From assembly GCA_045599345.1 (NCBI GenBank), contig JAZRVV010000019.1:3103-67102 (forward strand): a stretch of 64,000 bases of DNA. The letters run 5' to 3'. Source of the DNA: Acutalibacteraceae bacterium (GTDB taxonomy: Bacteria > Bacillota > Clostridia > Oscillospirales > Acutalibacteraceae). Shown here one piece after another: positions 7,218 to 57,766 of the stretch. The position numbers and the translations under genes are program-made. Within the stretch, counting starts at the first letter, position 1; each line of letters opens with the position of its first letter. The notes below the pieces were generated by a model. It was not told the DNA's origin. It made no database searches and saw nothing but the letters and a program-made list of their open reading frames with translations.

Positions 7218-9236
7218 ATGCTCCTAGACACTCAGATAAAATTTTTAAAAGGCGTTGGTGAAAAGCGCGCCGAGCAGTTTAACTCGCTCGGCGTGAATAC
7301 CATCAACGCTCTTTTTCATTATTATCCGAGAACGTACGAGGATTGGAGCTCACCTGTACCTATAAGAGGCTCTGAAAACCTTGATTGCTGTTGCATAAAA
7401 GCAACTGTTGCTGGAGACGTTCGTCGCCACAAGGCAAAGAGCAATGGAATGATGGTATTTGAAGTTGATGTCTTTGATGACACAGATTCACTTCACATCG
7501 TTATCTTTAACAACAAGTACGCCGCAATGAAACTCCAAAAGGGAGAGGAACTCCTCTTCTTTGGTTCGGTTACTAGAAATAACGGTGTACTTCAGATGCG
7601 CTCTCCTAGTATCGAAAAGACAGGCACAAAGGAGAGGATTAAGCCGATATATAGTCGCCGTGGCGGTTTGACATCAAACTATATCGAGAAGTGCGTTGAC
7701 ACAGCACTAAAACAGTTTGGCATTGGTATTGAGGATCCAATGCCACAGGATATCATTGAAAAATATGACTTGATGCCACTTGATGAGGCTATTCGTGAAA
7801 TACATTTTCCAAGCAATATGGAGATGATGACAAAGGCTCGTCATCGCTTCCTCTTTGAGGAACTGTTCTATCTCCAAATTGGGCTTAAGACAAAAGCGAT
7901 AGAGAACAAACAAAAGACAGATATTATTGCATCAGTGGATTGCACTGATGACTTTATCAGTCGCTTGCCATTTACGCCAACTGCCGCACAGCAAAAGTGC
8001 ATCAAAGCTGGTGTTGCCGACATGGCAAGTGGCATTGCCATGAACCGCCTTTTGCAGGGTGATGTTGGCTCTGGCAAGACGTTGGTTGCAGCAGCGCTGA
8101 TGTACAACATCTATGCCAATGGCTATCAGAGTGTGATGATGGCACCAACAGAAATTTTAGCAAGACAACATGCTCAGACGCTGAAGAAATTCTTTGAGGG
8201 AACTGCTGTAAAGGTTGTGGCCTTGACAGGAAGCACGCCAGCGGCTGAAAAGAGGGAAATTCTCGCTGGTCTTGCCAGTGGTGAGATTGCGATTGCCGTT
8301 GGCACGCATGCACTGATATCGGACAACGTAGAGTTCCAAAATTTAGGTTTTGTAATCACCGATGAGCAGCATCGCTTTGGCGTGCGCCAGCGAGCAAAGC
8401 TTAAGGAAAAGGGACAGGGAGTACACGTACTCGTTATGTCTGCGACACCTATTCCACGCACGCTTTTGTGGGCGATGTATGGGGATTTGGATGTCTCGAT
8501 TATTGACGAACTGCCAAAGGGCAGAGTGCCAATCGAGACGTACAAGATAAACTCATCGATTAGAAAGCGTGCTTTCGCGTATATCAAAAAGCACCTCGAT
8601 GAGGGCAGACAGGGATACATCGTATGCCCACTTGTTGAGGACGGCGAGATAGAAGGCGTCCTCTCAGCTAAGCAGTACTACGACCTCATCAAAGATGATG
8701 ACTTTCGGGATTACAGTGTTGGACTCCTTCATGGTCAAATGAAGGCAGGGGAAAAAGAATCCGTAATGGAGCGCTTCCAAAAGGGCGAGATTCAGCTTCT
8801 TGTTTCAACAGTTGTAATTGAGGTTGGTGTTGATGTTCCAAATGCGGTTATTATGCTCATTGAAAATGCAGAACGCTTTGGACTCTCACAACTTCACCAG
8901 TTGCGCGGACGCGTCGGTCGTGGACAGTGGAAGTCTACGTGCATCCTGTGCTCCGACAACACGTCGAAGCTGACAGAAGCAAGACTTGGGGTATTAACCT
9001 CAACAACCGACGGATTTGAAATCGCGCAACGTGATCTTGACCTGCGCGGCGCCGGCGAATTTTACGGCACTCGTCAGCACGGACAGGAAGTCTCCTATGT
9101 CAACGACATGATTGGCCATCCGGCTATCCTCGAGCGGGCTACCGCCGCCGCTGACAGCGTTTTAGCAAGAGGCGTTGCACCAGAGCTTATGATGGAAGTT
9201 GATAACCTTTTTGAGAGGATAGAAACATCCAGTTGA
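7218..9236 (+). CDS. recG: ATP-dependent DNA helicase RecG
   Basis: 672 aa with an N-terminal wedge/OB region, Walker A GDVGSGKT, TDEQHRFG and QLHQLRGRVGRG. Confidence 0.92.
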   Translation: MLLDTQIKFLKGVGEKRAEQFNSLGVNTINALFHYYPRTYEDWSSPVPIRGSENLDCCCIKATVAGDVRRHKAKSNGMMVFEVDVFDDTDSLHIVIFNNKYAAMKLQKGEELLFFGSVTRNNGVLQMRSPSIEKTGTKERIKPIYSRRGGLTSNYIEKCVDTALKQFGIGIEDPMPQDIIEKYDLMPLDEAIREIHFPSNMEMMTKARHRFLFEELFYLQIGLKTKAIENKQKTDIIASVDCTDDFISRLPFTPTAAQQKCIKAGVADMASGIAMNRLLQGDVGSGKTLVAAALMYNIYANGYQSVMMAPTEILARQHAQTLKKFFEGTAVKVVALTGSTPAAEKREILAGLASGEIAIAVGTHALISDNVEFQNLGFVITDEQHRFGVRQRAKLKEKGQGVHVLVMSATPIPRTLLWAMYGDLDVSIIDELPKGRVPIETYKINSSIRKRAFAYIKKHLDEGRQGYIVCPLVEDGEIEGVLSAKQYYDLIKDDDFRDYSVGLLHGQMKAGEKESVMERFQKGEIQLLVSTVVIEVGVDVPNAVIMLIENAERFGLSQLHQLRGRVGRGQWKSTCILCSDNTSKLTEARLGVLTSTTDGFEIAQRDLDLRGAGEFYGTRQHGQEVSYVNDMIGHPAILERATAAADSVLARGVAPELMMEVDNLFERIETSS

Positions 9237-9238
9237 TA

Positions 9239-9266
9239 TTGACATATACCATTAAAAGAGTATAAT
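9239..9266 (+). promoter_or_regulatory. Sigma-A-type promoter for the M23/LysM/G5 gene
   Basis: TTGACA (9239-9244), 16-nt spacer, TATAAT (9261-9266). The palindrome TTACAAaTTGTAA follows immediately at 9269-9281. Confidence 0.5.
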
Positions 9267-9304
9267 TATTACAAATTGTAACAATTAATTTCGGAGGCAA
9301 TATT

Positions 9305-11011
9305 TTGGAAAACGAAATTGTAGAGGAAGTAATAGAAGAAAACATTGTTGAATACAATAGTTTTGCTGAGACAGTTGGCGAGATGGTTGGAGCATTCTTC
9401 CATTCTCTCTGGCTTCTTATTGCTATGCTTACAACCGACCTTTTCAACTTGATTTCGACATTCTTCAAGTTCCTTGGTCGTTCAATAAAGAATGCAATCG
9501 GCGGCAGCCTCTCAAACCTTCGCGCTGAATGGGCTGAGTTTAAACTTGAGTGCGTCGAGCAAAAACAGGGACTCCGTGGTCTTCGCCTTGTGTTCAAGGA
9601 CCACCCAACAATGATTTCTAACATTGTTAATACAGTCCTTCCTGTTTGTGGCTTTATCGTTCTTGTTGCCACAATCACTCACTGGAACTCAACCACATAT
9701 GCAATTGAGGTTGATTCAAGTGGCAAGAGCGTAGGCGTTGTTGCTGATGAGCAGGTATATGTAAATGCACAGGATCTTGTGAAGGAACGTTTCAGCACAG
9801 ACCTTGGTGCCGATGACAATGTGTCATCACTTTCAACCTCATACAAGATTGTTGAGGCAAAACCAACTGAAATCACTGACTCACAGACAGTAAGTGATAA
9901 CATAGTAGAGAGTACAAACTCTGATTCAACATACGCCTGTGGCGTATACATCGACGGCGAGTTTATCTGCGCACTCAAAACCGAGACAGATGCAATGCAG
10001 GTATTTAACAACATCATCGATGGATATGAGAAGGAAAATGCAAATGATGTTGTAGGCTTTACTCAGGACGTCAAGTTTGTACAGGGTATTTACGCAAACA
10101 ATGAGGAAACAATCTGGGACTCTCAGCAGCTTGCTGATACACTTACCAAGTCAAGATACAAGGAGCGCCATTACATAGTACAGGCAGGCGATACACTCTC
10201 AAACATCGCTTACTCAAATGGCATCAGCGTATCAGAGCTCATCGCACTTAACCCAGAGCATGAAAAGGAAATTCACGTAGGTGACGACCTCCTTGTTGCA
10301 GGTGATGTTAACTACGTTAACCTCAAGGTAGTTAAGACTGTTGTCAAGAATGAGGAGATTCCATTCAAGACAGTTAAAACTGAAAACAGCAGCATCTATA
10401 AGGGCACAACCAAGACAACACAAAAGGGTGTTAATGGTATCGACCAGGTTACATACATGGTAACTTACGTAGATGGTGTCCAGACAGGAATCAAGGAAGT
10501 TAACCGTACAACAATTAGACAGCCAGTAGATCAAAAGATCTCTGTTGGTACCAAGGCAATTGTTAAACAGACCAATCGCAATACAGGTTACTCATACACA
10601 CCAAGCACATATGTCAAGTCCTATGGTAGGCTTGTATGGCCAGCTCCTGGCATATACAAAGTTTCATCACCATTTGGACCAAGATGGGGCTCATTCCATG
10701 GTGGTATTGACCTTTCAACTGGTCGTGCAGGCTCAACAATTGTTGCGGCTGCAAGTGGTACAGTAACAATCGCTTCAAACGGCAATGCAGGTTATGGTAC
10801 TTACGTTATGATTAACCACAACAACGGTATGGAGACTCTCTATGCTCATATGGTTTACGGTTCAATCTGTGTAAGCACAGGCCAGTATGTATCAGCAGGT
10901 CAGCCAATTGGTATCTTGGGTTCAACTGGTAACTCAACAGGACCTCACCTTCATTTCGAGGTTCGTATCAATGGTTCAAAAGTAAACCCAGCTCCATACA
11001 TTGGCGCTTAA
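9305..11011 (+). CDS. Membrane-anchored LysM + G5 + M23 peptidoglycan endopeptidase
   Basis: TM segment near the N-terminus. LysM (YIVQAGDTLSNIAYSNGISVSELIALNP), G5 (IPFKTVKTENSSIYKGTTKTTQKGVNG ... ISVGTK) and M23 (GIDLSTGRAGS ... GPHLHFEVR). TTG start 7 nt after GGAGG. Confidence 0.85.
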   Translation: MENEIVEEVIEENIVEYNSFAETVGEMVGAFFHSLWLLIAMLTTDLFNLISTFFKFLGRSIKNAIGGSLSNLRAEWAEFKLECVEQKQGLRGLRLVFKDHPTMISNIVNTVLPVCGFIVLVATITHWNSTTYAIEVDSSGKSVGVVADEQVYVNAQDLVKERFSTDLGADDNVSSLSTSYKIVEAKPTEITDSQTVSDNIVESTNSDSTYACGVYIDGEFICALKTETDAMQVFNNIIDGYEKENANDVVGFTQDVKFVQGIYANNEETIWDSQQLADTLTKSRYKERHYIVQAGDTLSNIAYSNGISVSELIALNPEHEKEIHVGDDLLVAGDVNYVNLKVVKTVVKNEEIPFKTVKTENSSIYKGTTKTTQKGVNGIDQVTYMVTYVDGVQTGIKEVNRTTIRQPVDQKISVGTKAIVKQTNRNTGYSYTPSTYVKSYGRLVWPAPGIYKVSSPFGPRWGSFHGGIDLSTGRAGSTIVAAASGTVTIASNGNAGYGTYVMINHNNGMETLYAHMVYGSICVSTGQYVSAGQPIGILGSTGNSTGPHLHFEVRINGSKVNPAPYIGA

Positions 11012-52238: not shown

Positions 52239-52253
52239 TATAATTGTATTTAA

Positions 52254-52285
52254 AGAGGCATGCATTGCGCATGCCTCTATTTTTG
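52254..52285 (+). terminator. Rho-independent terminator after cysS
   Basis: 10-bp stem agaggcatgc/gcatgcctct followed by atttttg. Confidence 0.75.
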
Positions 52286-52367
52286 TACAGTTGTAGGTTA
52301 ATTTTGAACATTTTGTGCAAGTTTAATATAAATTTTCAATATTTTTAAAAATTTTTATAAAAAAGTG

Positions 52368-52396
52368 TTGACATTTATTTGTCAATCCGTTATAGT
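52368..52396 (+). promoter_or_regulatory. Near-consensus sigma-A promoter (P1) with no CDS behind it
   Basis: TTGACA (52368-52373), 17-nt spacer, TATAGT (52391-52396). Confidence 0.5.
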
Positions 52397-52402
52397 GATG
52401 AA

Positions 52403-52536
52403 TGTAAGGGGAAGGTCCTTACAAAAATCCCAATTAATTTGGTAGTTTTTTCATTTTAATATCTCCTTTATTTTGAATAATTATCTCCTCAAAAACCAAA
52501 AGGCTCCGTAAGTCCAAACGGAGCCTTTCGGTTTTT
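52403..52536 (+). ncRNA. Candidate small RNA (about 130 nt) bounded by promoter P1 and an intrinsic terminator
   Basis: 5' hairpin gtaagg-ggaaggt-ccttac (52404-52422). AU-rich body with two AUCUCCU motifs (52461-52467 and 52483-52489). 11-bp terminator stem (52499-52528) followed by ttttt (52532-52536). Confidence 0.35.
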
Positions 52537-52646
52537 CTTATGACGATTTTTTCAAAATTCGAGAATGAGAAAACGTGAGAAAAAGAGAGAAAACGCGCGA
52601 AAACGCGAGAACTCGTTTTGTAAATTAAAAAATTGAAAAAATAGTG

Positions 52647-52675
52647 TTGACGAAGGTGAAAACGAGTGTTATTAT
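52647..52675 (+). promoter_or_regulatory. rplM-rpsI promoter (P2), extended -10
   Basis: TTGACG (52647-52652), 17-nt spacer, tgtTATTAT (-10 at 52670-52675). It shares the upstream context agtgTTGAC with P1. Confidence 0.5.
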
Positions 52676-52717
52676 AGTCGAGCACTTTAGTTATAAATAA
52701 TTAATGGAGGAAAAGTT

Positions 52718-53574: not shown

Positions 53575-53606
53575 ATGCTCCAGGCTTTTGCCTGGAGCAT
53601 TTTTTA
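53575..53606. terminator. Bidirectional rho-independent terminator (rpsI and the convergent ligase gene)
   Basis: 11-bp stem atgctccaggc/gcctggagcat with ttttt on the + side and aattttt on the minus side. Confidence 0.8.
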
Positions 53607-53608
53607 TT

Positions 53609-55459
53609 TTATAAACTTTCTATTATTTGCTTTTTAATGGTTATGCCATCAACCTTACCACTGCCAAGGAGTGGGAAACTATCAAAAACAAAGAATCGAA
53701 CTGGTATCTTGTACTTGGCTAGGTGCTTTGACAATTCTGCTTTTGCAGCATTTTCGTCCCATGTGGCGCCGTCTTTTAAAATGATGGCGGCCACGACAAC
53801 TTCACCTTTGACTTCATGAGGGAGACCAAGGACCTTGACGTCTTTGATTTCTGGTAATTTTGTCATCTCTTCTGCGATTTCTCCAGGGGAGATATTTTCA
53901 CCACCACAGATGATGAGGTCCTTTTTTCTGCCTACAAGTCTTAAGTATCCATCGTCATCAAGTACGCCTATGTCACCTGTCAAGAGCCAACCTTCATCGT
54001 CTACTGGTTGCTTGTCGATAGGGAGGTGGTAGTAACAAACTACCATTGCGTTTGAACGGATACAAATTTCACCCTCTTGGCCTTTTTTCAAGACTTCTCC
54101 TGTGCTTAAATCGCGGATGCTAAGCTCAAGTCCAGGAGCTGGCTTGCCGACAGTTTTAAGTATGTGCTCGGTTGTGTCGTTATAAAGAGTGAGGCTGATT
54201 GCGGCGTTTTCGCTCATGCCATAAATGTTGCCAAAATGGTTATTTGGCAGGAACTTTTTGAGGAGCGCAAACTGAGACTCTGTCGTTGTGGCACCGCCGA
54301 GAACAGATACGCGAAGGGAGGCAAGCTTTTCCGACGCAAATGTTTTAGCGCCAATAATCGCAAGCATCATCGCAGGGACAGAGTTGAATATGGTGCATTT
54401 ATATTTGTCGATAAGTTCGATGATGAGGTCAGGCGATTTGCTTTCTGGAATTATAGAGGTGTATCCAGAAAGCACGGCGAGTGCAACACCGGTGGCGAGA
54501 CCAAAGATATGGAAGAAAGGTAAAAATGCAAGATTGATATCTTGCTTTTTTAGCTCGTATTCTTTGATAAATGACTCGATGCTTGACATTATGCTAAAGC
54601 TGGACGCAAGTATTGCTTTTGGAAGACCAGTTGAACCGGATGAATAGATGATTACACTGGCATCATCTGCAAGGAAGTTGCCTTGATATTTATCCTTTAT
54701 GTTATCAAATTCATCAAACCTCTTCGTAAAATCAACACTACTACTAATATCATATACGAGTGAGATTGTGTCACCTAAGAGGGCATTTTTATAGTCGTCA
54801 AAAGTGGTGATGCCCGGGATTTCTGCATAGCAGAGGTGCGTGACATCGCCAATCTTTGCAAGTGACAAAACTTCGTTTGGCAAAAGTGCTGGGTTGATTA
54901 GCACAGCAATGCCGCCGAGTTTTTGTATTGCAAAGAAAGTGACTACCCAGTTGATTGAATTTGGAGCACAAATTCCAACATGAGTACCTTTCTTAACGCC
55001 AGCAAGGCTGAGGTCATCCGCCACAATCTGTGACATCTTATCTAAATCATCCCAAGTATATGGCCGATTTAGATATATGAAAGCGGTGTTTTTACAGTCG
55101 CTTTCAAGTCGCTTTTTAAGCAGGCTTGAAAAGCTAAGACGATATCCGTCGTCAAGAAAGTCATCCTTCTCAATCTTGATTAATGTATCAAAACCGGTGG
55201 TTTTGAAAACGTCGATTATCTCATCGCTTGCATTGATGATTCTCATTTTATCATCGGTTAGTTTCTTTCTAGCAACGAGTAAAACGCGAAGACCAGCTGA
55301 TGTGATATAGCTAGTCTTTGCGAAATCTATTGTCAAATCAAGTCCCTCATAATCAAGGGATAAGAGTTCTTCGTTTAACTTTGTTGATGTAACTGTGTCA
55401 ATAGTACCTACTATTGATATTGTGACATTGTTGCCATCAACTGTTTTGATTATTTCCAT
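53609..55459 (-). CDS. STAS (anti-sigma-antagonist-like) domain fused to an ANL-superfamily acyl-AMP-forming ligase
   Basis: Residues 1-100 are SpoIIAA-like (VTISIVGTIDTVTSTKLNEEL ... FAKTSYITSAGLRVLLVARKKL ... VFKTTGFDTLIKI). The remainder carries IYSSGSTGLPKA, TGDIGVLDDDGYLRLVGRKKDLII and the C-terminal GKVD. Confidence 0.85.
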   Translation of the reverse strand: MEIIKTVDGNNVTISIVGTIDTVTSTKLNEELLSLDYEGLDLTIDFAKTSYITSAGLRVLLVARKKLTDDKMRIINASDEIIDVFKTTGFDTLIKIEKDDFLDDGYRLSFSSLLKKRLESDCKNTAFIYLNRPYTWDDLDKMSQIVADDLSLAGVKKGTHVGICAPNSINWVVTFFAIQKLGGIAVLINPALLPNEVLSLAKIGDVTHLCYAEIPGITTFDDYKNALLGDTISLVYDISSSVDFTKRFDEFDNIKDKYQGNFLADDASVIIYSSGSTGLPKAILASSFSIMSSIESFIKEYELKKQDINLAFLPFFHIFGLATGVALAVLSGYTSIIPESKSPDLIIELIDKYKCTIFNSVPAMMLAIIGAKTFASEKLASLRVSVLGGATTTESQFALLKKFLPNNHFGNIYGMSENAAISLTLYNDTTEHILKTVGKPAPGLELSIRDLSTGEVLKKGQEGEICIRSNAMVVCYYHLPIDKQPVDDEGWLLTGDIGVLDDDGYLRLVGRKKDLIICGGENISPGEIAEEMTKLPEIKDVKVLGLPHEVKGEVVVAAIILKDGATWDENAAKAELSKHLAKYKIPVRFFVFDSFPLLGSGKVDGITIKKQIIESL

Positions 55460-56576
55460 CGTTTACCTCAACACGTTTTTCTTCTAGTTTACGCTTTCTA
55501 AACCTTGTGTATTCTTCAGCAATGATGTTTGCAACAACAAAGATTATCGTGCCAACAATAAATGTGAAAGGTACAGCGAGCCCATCGAATTCTACAATGG
55601 CAAAAATAGCTTCAATTAAGCCTATGATTACCCAATGGATGCAGTAAGTACGGTTTATGTTCTTGCTGATTGTTGTAATCAGGTTTTTGCCAGCCTTTGG
55701 TATGATTTTTGAAGCATAGTGGTAAAGGCTAGTTGCAAATATCATACCGAGTAAAAATACTAAAATGTTTGGTGTGGTGAACTGATAGTAGTAGAGAATG
55801 TTTGGGTTCATCATTCCGAGTTCTCTTGGAATAGCAATACCCATATAGGTGGCAAGTAAAACGCCAGAGATTGGCAATGCAAGTTTATAATATTTGTCGA
55901 TGTCAGTACAGCGACGAATAATATATTTGCCATAGAGGTATCCAACTACAACTACTATGAACCAGTTGAGAAGTGGGAAAGGTGCAAGATTGAGCTCGTT
56001 TGTTGCTGAGCATGTGCCAATTAACAAACCATAGATTTGAACTAATACTGGATTGACTGGGTCTACAAATCTGATGAAGCTGCCGACAACAGACATGATG
56101 AGTGCGACAATAAATATTGCAAAATCAGAGAACTTCAATTTTTTAAGAAGCCCAAAGAGCATAAGGGCGAGGCCTGCAAATTGCATGATGTCGTCGCATA
56201 TTAAAAGAACGATTGCATAAGTGATTGGAAGGCCAACTATTGTGACACCTAATATTGCAAGGAGGCCCTCTCGAAAGATGTTTAGTATATAACCGAATGC
56301 AAATATTTTAGCGCCACGAACTATGAGCTTGTTTGCATCGCCTTTGAAACTGTAGGATATTCCAAGTCCCATACACATCATAAATGTACTAGCTCCAAAT
56401 ATACTGTCTAGGACGATAACGAATATATAGAACAAACTTGATGTTCCGGCTGCTGATTCGACGGTGAGTTCTTCGAAACAATGGACAAAGACCATTCCAA
56501 GTATACAGATAGCTTTTGCCATATCAAATTCAAACTGTCTTAAAGTATTAACGTCCTTTTTAGCTAATAAATTCAT
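55437..56576 (-). CDS. Polytopic membrane protein, acyltransferase-3/DUF1624-like
   Basis: About 10 predicted TM helices. N-terminal RQFEFDMAKAICILGMVFVHC resembles the R..xD..K/R..a...vv..H start of acyltransferase_3 proteins. Start at ATG 56576 after AAGGGG. The 3' end overlaps the ligase start by 23 nt. Confidence 0.65.
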   Translation of the reverse strand: MNLLAKKDVNTLRQFEFDMAKAICILGMVFVHCFEELTVESAAGTSSLFYIFVIVLDSIFGASTFMMCMGLGISYSFKGDANKLIVRGAKIFAFGYILNIFREGLLAILGVTIVGLPITYAIVLLICDDIMQFAGLALMLFGLLKKLKFSDFAIFIVALIMSVVGSFIRFVDPVNPVLVQIYGLLIGTCSATNELNLAPFPLLNWFIVVVVGYLYGKYIIRRCTDIDKYYKLALPISGVLLATYMGIAIPRELGMMNPNILYYYQFTTPNILVFLLGMIFATSLYHYASKIIPKAGKNLITTISKNINRTYCIHWVIIGLIEAIFAIVEFDGLAVPFTFIVGTIIFVVANIIAEEYTRFRKRKLEEKRVEVNDGNNQNS

Positions 56577-56689
56577 AGACTCACCCCTTATAATTCCAAT
56601 TATAAGCAATTAAATGACAAAATACACACTTTATTTTGTAATATTAATAGTATATAATACTAGCAACTAATTTTAGAGGAGATGAAGGC

Positions 56690-57766
56690 ATGAGTAAGTT
56701 TAAAGCTTTCCTCAAGAAAAAGGACATAGAAATTTCAGGAAAAAGGTACGGCATTGACGCATTAGGCGCAATGGCACAGGGTCTTTTCTGTTCCCTCCTT
56801 ATCGGAACAATTTTTAAGACACTTGGCATGATTCCTGCCCTTTCAGTTTTCACTGATATTGGCGGCTATGCAATGGCAATGTCTGGCCCTGCTATGGCCA
56901 TTGCCATTGGTTATGCTTTAAAGGCTCCACCACTTGTACTTTTCTCACTTGCGGTTGTTGGTAATTCGGCCAACACCATAGGTGGTGCGGGTGGACCACT
57001 TGCCGTTTTGTTCATTGCAATTATTGCAGCTGAATTCGGCAAGTTGGTTTCAAAGGAGACCAAGATAGATATTCTTGTAACACCAACAGTAACAATCCTT
57101 GTTGGCGTTGGCCTCTCAATGCTTATTGCAGCGCCAATAGGCAAGGCCGCTATGTGGGTTGGTGACCTCATTATGTGGGCAACTGATCTCCAGCCATTCC
57201 TTATGGGAATTGTTGTATCGGTACTTGTTGGTATTGCACTTACACTTCCGATTTCATCTGCTGCTATCTGTGCATCATTTGGCCTTGTTGGCCTTGCTGG
57301 TGGCGCTGCTGTTGCAGGCTGCTGCGCACAGATGGTTGGTTTTGCAGTTATGTCATACAAGGAGAACAAGGTTGGTGGCCTTATCTCACAGGGTATCGGC
57401 ACATCAATGCTCCAGATGCCAAACATTGTTAAGAATCCAAAGATTTGGATTGCTCCAACACTTGCATCTGCAATCACAGGCCCTATCGCTACTTGCATAT
57501 TTGGACTTCAGATGAACGGTGCCGCTATCAACTCTGGCATGGGTACATGTGGTCTTTGCGGACCTATCGGTGTAATCACAGGTTGGTTCTCACCATCTGA
57601 TGCAGCAGCTGCAAAGGACCTTGCTGCAATCGCACCAAATGCAAAGGACTGGATTGGCCTTGCACTTGTCTGTGTTGTACTTCCAGCAATACTCTCATTC
57701 ATCTTCTGTGAAGTTGAGAGAAAGATTGGCTGGATCAAAGAAAATGATTTAAAACTTCCAGAATAA
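56690..57766 (+). CDS. PTS EIIC_2-like integral membrane protein
   Basis: 358 aa, glycine-rich and polytopic. The family call is from memory of PF13303-type proteins. No EIIA or EIIB gene is nearby. Confidence 0.6.
   Translation: MSKFKAFLKKKDIEISGKRYGIDALGAMAQGLFCSLLIGTIFKTLGMIPALSVFTDIGGYAMAMSGPAMAIAIGYALKAPPLVLFSLAVVGNSANTIGGAGGPLAVLFIAIIAAEFGKLVSKETKIDILVTPTVTILVGVGLSMLIAAPIGKAAMWVGDLIMWATDLQPFLMGIVVSVLVGIALTLPISSAAICASFGLVGLAGGAAVAGCCAQMVGFAVMSYKENKVGGLISQGIGTSMLQMPNIVKNPKIWIAPTLASAITGPIATCIFGLQMNGAAINSGMGTCGLCGPIGVITGWFSPSDAAAAKDLAAIAPNAKDWIGLALVCVVLPAILSFIFCEVERKIGWIKENDLKLPE

Follow-up and report, generated by a model that had tools for sequence, protein, structure and literature searches.

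At 53609-56576 on the minus strand of a 64,000-nt stretch of Acutalibacteraceae DNA (the whole stretch is called the window here), two overlapping genes raise the question of why a STAS domain is fused to an acyl-activating ligase of the ANL superfamily, and what this ligase does beside a membrane protein of the acyltransferase-3 (AT3) family. On balance, the pair is probably a translationally coupled two-gene operon that acylates a glycan of the cell envelope. A preliminary description of the locus had proposed a two-gene envelope acylation module, and the idea is supported by the domain calls, including the score of the N-terminal region as STAS, by the acyltransferase fold and family of the membrane protein, and by the co-conservation of the two genes. 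The parts of the locus are as follows.

53609..55459, (-): STAS-ANL fusion gene, 616 aa plus stop; Pfam STAS, AMP-binding and AMP-binding_C
55437..56576, (-): AT3/TmAT-fold membrane acyltransferase gene, 379 aa, AT3-only, no SGNH domain; Pfam and structural model
55166..55459, (-): STAS domain of the SpoIIAA/RsbV type, residues 1-98; T53-S54 and R58/R64/K65 (helix α2) invariant
55115..55165, (-): variable linker, residues 99-115; from column entropy, model confidence (predicted local distance difference test, pLDDT) and the start of STAS-less relatives
53930..55114, (-): ANL N-terminal (adenylation core) domain, residues 116-510; P-loop SSGSTGLPKA, YGMSE, TGD
53612..53929, (-): ANL C-terminal domain, residues 511-616; hinge GRKKD, GGENISPGE, catalytic K602
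55437..55459, (-): 23-nt stretch shared by the AT3 stop region and the ligase start; predicted translational coupling
55466-55469, (-): ligase ribosome-binding site GAGG, inside the 3' end of the AT3 gene, just upstream of the 23-nt overlap

Domains and folds of the two encoded proteins

Each of the three Pfam domains of the fusion passed its curated cut-off, in agreement with the preliminary description: STAS (PF01740; 38.5 bits vs. a cut-off of 22.6) at residues 5-98, AMP-binding (PF00501; 233.5 bits) at residues 116-477, and AMP-binding_C (PF13193; 42.3 bits) at residues 528-602. A second STAS model, STAS_2 (PF13466), scored 21.1 bits, under its cut-off of 29.2. The quoted ligase motifs were present (SSGSTGLPKA at 273-282, GDIGVLDDDGYLRLVGRKKDLI at 495-516, and GSGK at 599-602), as were the ANL core motifs A3, A5, A7, and A8 and the A10 Lys. 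Across 120 sequences, S274, G275, K281, Y413, G414, E417, T494, G495, D496, R511, K513, and K602 of the ligase were invariant.

The enzyme had initially been taken for a fatty-acyl-AMP ligase (FAAL), a class whose specific N-domain insertion of ~20 residues blocks the thioester conformation. This assignment was not supported, as the nearest solved relatives are all coenzyme A (CoA) ligases. The best sequence matches in the PDB were 4-coumarate-CoA ligases (4CL; 4CL2 at 190 bits), followed by FadD13, oxalate-CoA ligase, 4-chlorobenzoate-CoA ligase, malonyl-CoA synthetase, and MenE; an acyl-(acyl carrier protein) (acyl-ACP) synthetase (8hsy, 8jyl) also appeared, lower in score at 112 bits. NCBIfam returned CoA-ligase families throughout, with all 25 listed matches far below their cut-offs (the top score was PRK06187 at 310.6 bits vs. 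476; MenE TIGR01923 reached 229 vs. 330), and among these 25 the ligase fits no named curated subfamily or equivalog such as FadD or MenE. Residues 132-603 of the query (472 residues) aligned with residues 51-526 of 4CL2 (476 residues) with small gaps only, and because the two spans are nearly equal in size without a large gap, the ligase has no FAAL-type insertion. No FAAL was found in its top 60 sequence matches in the PDB or its top 50 structural matches.

The AlphaFold2 model of the fusion, built on a 120-sequence alignment (pLDDT 89.1; predicted template-modelling score, pTM, 0.78), fits the thioester state. Superposition on thioester-state structures, namely 5bsr (4CL with AMP and CoA), 5x8f (MenE ternary complex), 3rg2_D (EntE-EntB), and 4eat (benzoate-CoA ligase), gave an rmsd of 2.8-3.9 Å, compared with ~11 Å for the adenylation-state structures of the same enzymes. 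Judging from its relatives and the model conformation, the ligase is most likely CoA-ligase-like and would carry out the second half-reaction, formation of the CoA thioester. It shares the P-loop, YGxxE, TGD, the GRxKD hinge, and the C-terminal Lys with 4CL, FadD13, MenE, and oxalate-CoA ligase, at 24-27% identity and TM-scores of 0.84-0.87 to ANL CoA-ligase structures; unlike these enzymes, it carries an N-terminal STAS domain and is genomically paired with a membrane acyltransferase. Gly414, which we take to occupy the position of the Trp that limits acetyl-CoA synthetase to acetate, and the segment GEICIRS, which presumably resembles 4CL box II, would both suggest an acid larger than acetate.

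The 379-aa partner had been described as an acyltransferase-3/DUF1624-type protein with about ten transmembrane (TM) helices, and that description was confirmed. It matched Acyl_transf_3 (PF01757) at 43.6 bits vs. a cut-off of 31 and HGSNAT_cat (PF07786, formerly DUF1624) at 41.7 bits vs. a cut-off of 22, and its AlphaFold2 model (96 sequences, pLDDT 95.6, pTM 0.92) contains ~10 TM helices. In Foldseek, the sole credible matches were human HGSNAT (six chains; probability 0.99-1.0, query TM-score 0.47-0.49) and GWT1 (probability 0.97, query TM-score 0.48), while transporters reached a probability of at most 0.21 and a TM-score of at most 0.2. The termini are rich in Lys and Arg, and a K/R/E-rich helix extension runs over ~355-379 at the C-terminus; the K/R-rich ends therefore predict an N-in/C-in topology with cytoplasmic termini. 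Taken together, sequence and model support an acyltransferase fold rather than a transporter.

The family invariants of the membrane protein are R13, D18-x-x-K21-x10-H32, F65-x4-G70, R87, Y311, and W315. They can be read against the acyl-CoA-pore motifs of the TmAT superfamily, which are DxxRx10H in TMH1 with a functionally essential Arg and His, FxxxxG in TMH2, and RxxR in TMH3 (PMC12423673). In TM1, K21 and H32 were invariant in 96 sequences, and both lineages of AT3 partners described below carry Lys where the canonical DxxR has Arg; Lys at this position is known in Cas1_AcylT and TraX (PMC12423673). TM2 contains F65-MMCM-G70, with G70 invariant and F65 kept in at least 90% of sequences. 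In TM3, R87 is kept in at least 90%, and the second RxxR position is K90 in the window and Arg in several homologues. Y311, a candidate equivalent of the TMH9 Tyr (SxxxY), and W315 never vary in the window-type family, where they lie in the penultimate helix (307-327); the downstream-type partner has Leu at the column of Y311.

These features place the protein with the AT3-only TmAT acyltransferases (Oac, ExoZ/ExoH, OpgC/MdoC, IcaC, CarE, WecH), which likewise have 10 TM helices, match PF01757, and share the TM1 D-x-x-(R/K)-x10-H, the TM2 FxxxxG, the TM3 Arg, and the HGSNAT/GWT1-like fold; the window protein differs in having Lys for the TM1 Arg. The expected donor of these enzymes, and likewise of the window AT3, is acyl-CoA from the cytoplasm. 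The donors of characterised AT3 enzymes are acyl-CoAs and not ACP, with succinyl, propionyl, and isovaleryl examples (PMC9558356, PMC12423673). No dedicated CoA ligase, such as the window pair probably has, is described for any of the characterised AT3-only systems reviewed; in one review of AT3 enzymes, the words "ligase" and "synthetase" have 0 occurrences and no ligase partner is mentioned (PMC9558356).

Conservation of the ligase-acyltransferase pair

The 23-nt overlap of the two genes (55437-55459) is real, and elsewhere the junctions of the pair are 4-nt overlaps or gaps of 5-12 nt. In a search space of 5.8 billion proteins, the fusion family comprised at least 120 clusters that aligned over the full length at 54-67% identity. 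AMP-binding and AMP-binding_C were present in all listed clusters, each of which also had a precomputed PF01740 and/or PF13466 match. An exhaustive HMMER scan of 1.84 billion representatives extended the full-length, STAS-bearing relatives down to ~36-38% identity (~27 clusters at 50% identity, 610-661 aa). Ligase relatives lacking the STAS domain, at 35-53% identity (P0244, P0272, P0281, and others), start exactly at the linker. The module occurs widely among uncultured Clostridia of the gut and rumen, under generic annotation only: the fusion is named "AMP-binding protein [Clostridia / Bacillota bacterium]" or "fatty-acyl-CoA synthase", and its partner "acyltransferase family/DUF1624 protein". 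In keeping with the preliminary description, no characterised example of the fusion was found; the literature searched contains no description of a STAS-ANL fusion or of an ANL-AT3 operon.

We read the contexts of eight fusion proteins and five metagenome loci (12 look-ups, mostly contigs from metagenome-assembled genomes of related Clostridia). An AT3 gene was immediately adjacent to the fusion gene in nine of the ten distinct informative contexts, lying upstream in the window, L001, L088, L089, and L092, and downstream in L002/L003, L085-L087, L090, and L091. All other neighbours vary between contexts, so the conserved unit is the ligase/AT3 pair. Fourteen further pairs of fusion and AT3 clusters have longest contigs of the same size in bp, an indirect sign of a shared contig (for example, P0054/P0401 with 3,316 bp, P0027/P0147 with 5,355 bp, P0050/P0402 with 158,711 bp, and P0049/P0414 with 84,883 bp); since several of these contigs are just 3.3-7.5 kb long, the genes on them must be adjacent.

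The upstream- and downstream-type AT3 proteins are very distant from each other. Their BLASTP match is limited to 23 residues of TM1 (E = 9e-4), their MAFFT identity is 17-18%, and they share only R..D.AK.I.IL..VFVH, although both pass PF01757 (82.6 bits for the downstream type). The ligases paired with these two lineages are ~57% identical to each other. The pairing thus survives both an inversion of gene order and a swap to a distant paralogous AT3, which is strong evidence that ligase and AT3 are functionally coupled.

Other searches covered further replicons. A metagenome scan with a STAS-only alignment gave nine loci, five with the fusion (L090-L094, of which L093 and L094 are short contigs) and four with a standalone STAS. 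Among the matches listed from a profile search of genome contigs with the full-length alignment, there were only ordinary ligases of ~30% identity (L005-L084) and no fusion, and tblastn of plasmids found no fusion. The plasmid search did return a single piece on the Paraburkholderia megaplasmid NZ_AP023182.1 (740823-741230; query 63-197, 29.5% identity, E = 2e-7) that covers the STAS end, the linker, and the ANL start; the record is unannotated. The piece may represent a remote form of the fusion in Proteobacteria, or else an N-terminal extension with no relation to it.

Proposed function and the role of the STAS domain

In the proposed mechanism, the cytoplasmic ANL enzyme would convert a free carboxylic acid, probably one larger than acetate, and ATP into an acyl thioester, most likely an acyl-CoA. 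The adjacent 10-TM AT3/TmAT protein would let this acyl-CoA enter its transmembrane pore on the cytoplasmic side and, with His32 of TM1, pass the acyl group to an extracytoplasmic acceptor, presumably a glycan such as teichoic acid, capsule or exopolysaccharide, or peptidoglycan. The STAS domain, an interaction module of the RsbV/SpoIIAA type, may bind a common partner through its α2 face and so gate or localise the ligase; the body of the ligase and a conserved protein acting in trans, such as an RsbW-like kinase, are both possible partners. By analogy, the system may work like the AT3-only glycan acyltransferases (OpgC, ExoH, IcaC, CarE) with the addition of its own donor-synthesising enzyme.

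AT3 acyltransferases influence resistance to phages and antibiotics, recognition by the immune system, and the properties of biofilms; even so, the usual assumption is that they draw their acyl groups from central metabolites, for example, acetyl- or succinyl-CoA. A dedicated acid-CoA ligase as a conserved AT3 partner implies that, in gut and rumen Clostridia, a surface polymer carries a scavenged or unusual acyl group, and the pair offers a direct handle for finding this surface modification. The STAS fusion, in turn, is a test case for STAS control of non-sigma outputs and adds an enzyme class to the few STAS-fused effectors.

Two neighbourhoods give weak hints to the class of glycan acceptor, each as a single case. 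In L104 (1-7003), a 39%-identical STAS-ligase (P0250) closes a glycosyltransferase cluster of GT4, GT4, and GNAT-GT2 genes; the next gene overlaps that of P0250 by 4 nt, and its first 45 residues are membrane-protein-like (..IISFFLSFIVIQSH..) before the contig ends. In L089, the gene order is sulfatase-domain gene, AT3, STAS-ligase, with the first of these overlapping the AT3 start by 8 nt. It encodes a 653-aa Sulfatase-domain protein (L089:2909-4870; PF00884, 93.7 bits) with an LtaS/phosphoglycerol-transferase-like architecture, an arrangement that could hint at a teichoic-acid-type acceptor.

Several points weigh against envelope acylation by the pair. The sample of contexts is small, and in one of them, L004, the fusion has no AT3 gene within 6 kb and an overlapping gene for an MBL-fold hydrolase instead. 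AT3 relatives at 34-41% identity (L099, L100; Victivallaceae, Bacilli) occur without a STAS-ligase neighbour, and the coupling is therefore clade-specific. The ANL enzyme could, to judge from sequence and model, load another thiol or a protein in place of CoA. Finally, the AT3 protein departs from the canonical pore motifs at two positions, with Lys for the TM1 Arg of DxxR and Lys (K90 in the window) for the second Arg of RxxR.

To evaluate the STAS domain, we compared it with solved relatives and followed its conservation through the family. The nearest PDB sequences were RsbV (6m36_B, E = 7e-8), a SpoIIAA-like protein (4hyl, E = 5e-5), and TM1442. Aligned with 6m36_B, S54 (..ITSAGL..) falls on the phospho-Ser position of RsbV (itSagl vs. 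mdStgl), which confirms the proposed match to the phosphorylatable Ser of anti-sigma antagonists. The modelled domain (pLDDT 87-95) has the order β-β-α-β-β-α-β-α-β, with strands at 2-8, 11-20, 41-45, 49-52, 72-77, and 95-98 and helices at 25-33, 54-65, and 79-88. Residues 46-75, which span the end of β3, the Ser loop, α2, and β4 and form the canonical partner-binding face, have a column entropy of 0.54-0.59, comparable to that of most catalytic segments of the ligase; the linker (99-115) is the most variable segment (entropy 1.65-2.2), with pLDDT below 50 at 101-103. T53, S54, L57, R58, L60, L61, R64, and K65 were invariant in 120 sequences across both AT3-partner groups. As the two AT3 lineages share almost nothing, this face more likely binds something common to all members than the AT3 protein. 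Such a common partner could be a small ligand, a conserved protein acting in trans, or the ANL body of the fusion. The STAS domain most likely serves regulation or interaction through its α2 face and may do so by phosphorylation, autoinhibition, or docking.

The fold, the signature, and the Ser at the N-terminus of α2 are common to the fusion STAS and the single-domain proteins SpoIIAA and RsbV. The latter are standalone, whereas the window STAS is fused to an enzyme with no cognate kinase or phosphatase found nearby, and the Asp that precedes the phospho-Ser in RsbV/SpoIIAA is an invariant Thr in the fusion.

A possible, though doubtful, refinement of envelope acylation by the pair, which does not exclude it, is that the STAS domain works as a phospho-switch. 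S54 would then be the target of an RsbW/SpoIIAB-like kinase and of a PP2C phosphatase, with both genes lying elsewhere in the genome, and its state would toggle ligase and acylation under stress. The kinship with anti-sigma antagonists, the alignment of S54, and the invariance of T53-S54 in the 120 sequences are consistent with such a switch, while the Thr in place of Asp and the replacement of S54 by Ile, Ala, or Leu in three of 27 distant representatives speak against it. The closest standalone STAS relatives occur in partner-switching settings, one of them adjoining a HAMP-PP2C phosphatase gene (L095), and in L093 and L094 the fusion gene is directly preceded by a paralogous ORF for a standalone STAS. 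Further in favour of the switch, the AT3 family itself meets these enzymes in L102 (5001-8171; also L103 and L105), where the gene for a 378-aa AT3 (P0212, 31% identical to the window AT3) overlaps a HAMP-SpoIIE (PP2C) gene by 17 nt, and in L102/L103 an RsbW-like HATPase_c_2 kinase gene follows the phosphatase gene with a 4-nt overlap. Even without the ligase fusion, this linkage would connect the AT3 family with partner-switching enzymes that act on STAS domains. The L105 phosphatase has an identical N-terminus and the proteins are the same as in L102, so the AT3-PP2C-kinase linkage represents a single lineage, which limits its value here. Against the switch, tblastn with the L102 proteins, a search of limited sensitivity, found no RsbW/SpoIIAB-like kinase or PP2C in the 64-kb window or at 10 fusion loci, and no HATPase_c or SpoIIE Pfam match occurred among the neighbours in the fusion contexts read.

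The standalone STAS ORF noted above encodes 99 aa (..LEYISSAGLRVLL..) and occupies L093:461-760 and L094:616-915, ~130-160 nt upstream of the fusion gene. Its identity is ~33% with the window STAS and reaches 41% with the STAS domains of other fusions, and it may be a paralogous partner or competitor.

A second explanation, which we regard as unlikely, has the STAS domain dock the ligase on the cytoplasmic face of the AT3 protein, so that acyl-CoA or acyl-AMP is channelled into the pore, as with SLC26/MlaFE partners. In SulP/SLC26 and Mla systems, STAS domains partner membrane proteins on the cytoplasmic side, and the tight predicted translational coupling, the persistent adjacency of both genes, and the K/R/E-rich cytoplasmic C-terminal helix extension of the AT3 protein would suit a docked pair. 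Nevertheless, the STAS face is invariant in both ligase subgroups while their AT3 partners share essentially TM1 alone, and binding of one face to two unrelated surfaces is unlikely; moreover, L004 retains the STAS domain without an adjacent AT3 gene.

We hold it to be more improbable still that STAS-ligase and AT3 form a regulated membrane complex in which a STAS domain phosphorylated at S54 or bound by a kinase-like partner gates the supply of an unusual acyl-CoA to the pore. If this were so, anti-sigma-antagonist-style signalling would, for the first time, be seen to act on an enzyme of envelope glycan acylation and not on a sigma factor, and an AT3 system would for the first time come with a ligase of its own for donor synthesis.

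It is very unlikely that the membrane protein admits an exogenous acid which the ligase traps as its CoA ester, or that the adjacency is functionally meaningless. The ligase does resemble catabolic enzymes of the FadD/4CL/MenE type, and free organic acids abound in the gut and rumen. However, the TmAT fold with its conserved catalytic His and acyl-CoA-pore residues bears no resemblance to a transporter fold, and the adjacency holds over two gene orders and two AT3 lineages while other neighbours change.

The preliminary description had also invoked the carrier logic of the Dlt pathway (DltA-DltC-DltB-DltD). Dlt likewise places a gene for a cytoplasmic ATP-dependent ANL enzyme beside that for a polytopic acyltransferase of an envelope polymer, but it has the carrier DltC, the MBOAT protein DltB, and DltD, none of which Pfam detected in the window operon or its conserved neighbours, where the partner is AT3/TmAT. 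No PP-binding carrier or DltD/SGNH gene flanked the pair in ~10 contexts; a non-ribosomal peptide synthetase gene in L088 is set off from the pair by an opposite-strand gene and is not conserved. The window ligase is CoA-ligase-like, unlike an amino-acid-carrier-protein ligase of the DltA type. Because of this ligase type, the lack of a carrier encoded nearby, and the acyl-CoA donors of AT3 enzymes, the pair is not Dlt-like. The least probable explanation, a fatty-acyl-AMP ligase serving a STAS-recruited ACP and then the membrane acyltransferase, can draw on the E. coli YchM STAS domain, reportedly co-crystallised with ACP according to papers citing that work, and on the acyl-ACP synthetase among the PDB relatives, yet it is disfavoured by the missing FAAL insertion and FAAL matches, by the CoA-ligase-type A8 motif GGENISPGE and nearest families, and by the absence of PP-binding, MBOAT, DltD, and SGNH partners in the contexts read. 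An ACP-recruiting role of the STAS domain, as once suggested, is possible solely by analogy to YchM and finds no support in this analysis. A match of STAS residues 52-114 to a polyketide synthase ACP (6h0j, E = 0.46) was considered as a carrier hint and rejected as insignificant.

Flanking signals and neighbouring genes

Three short elements flank the pair.

56584-56589, (-): ribosome-binding site AAGGGG of the AT3 gene; sequence inspection
56599-56604, (-): candidate -10 box, perfect TATAAT; sequence inspection, -35 element weak
53575..53600, both strands: bidirectional intrinsic terminator; 11-bp stem, 7 G-C pairs, T-runs on both strands

The pair had been described as bracketed by a terminator and a divergent promoter region. 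The terminator stands; with its 11-bp stem, it lies between the ligase stop and the convergent rplM-rpsI genes and is common to both sides. The promoter is only weakly backed, by the TATAAT and the ribosome-binding site, as the consensus scan called none in the intergenic region upstream of the AT3 gene and that region has no good -35 element. A scan match at 56527-56500 was rejected since it lies within the conserved N-terminal coding sequence of the AT3 gene. The ATG at 56576 fits the N-termini of homologues as the AT3 start, and the alternative TTG at 56609 falls within the putative promoter. Rfam and tRNA scans gave no riboswitch or leader for the AT3-ligase operon.

Other genes near members of the family were recorded. 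In one lineage, a gene for an extracytoplasmic function (ECF)-type sigma factor (Sigma70_r2/r4_2) lies directly downstream of the ligase-AT3 pair (L002:9257-10427, L003:3446-4616), next to an overlapping gene for a 223-aa protein that is possibly an anti-sigma factor. In L004 (1725-8726), the fusion gene sits between the MBL-fold gene and a cluster resembling those for ribosomally synthesised and post-translationally modified peptides (RiPPs), comprising ScmC, radical SAM, a 47-aa peptide, PqqD, and NTP_transf_5. Downstream of the AT3-phosphatase-kinase genes of L102, five small ORFs lie by a radical-SAM gene (8387-10537). Four have Nif11-like leaders (..SEEELE..AGG / ..VSGG) and Gly/Ala-rich cores, and the fifth, of 71 aa, has a ..ISGG.. 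motif without such a core; from its sequence features, the array looks like a RiPP precursor cluster.

Within the window, a gap of ~480 nt without a large ORF (52239-52717) separates cysS-like and rplM-like ORFs, both assigned by a look at the sequence and unscanned; Rfam at its gathering threshold gave no L13 leader and no T-box there. Divergent from the AT3 operon is a PTS_EIIC_2 permease gene (PF13303, 301.5 bits; 56690-57766) with no adjacent EIIA/EIIB gene. Beyond it lie proB-, proA-, and proC-like ORFs for proline biosynthesis, likewise unscanned and assigned by eye.

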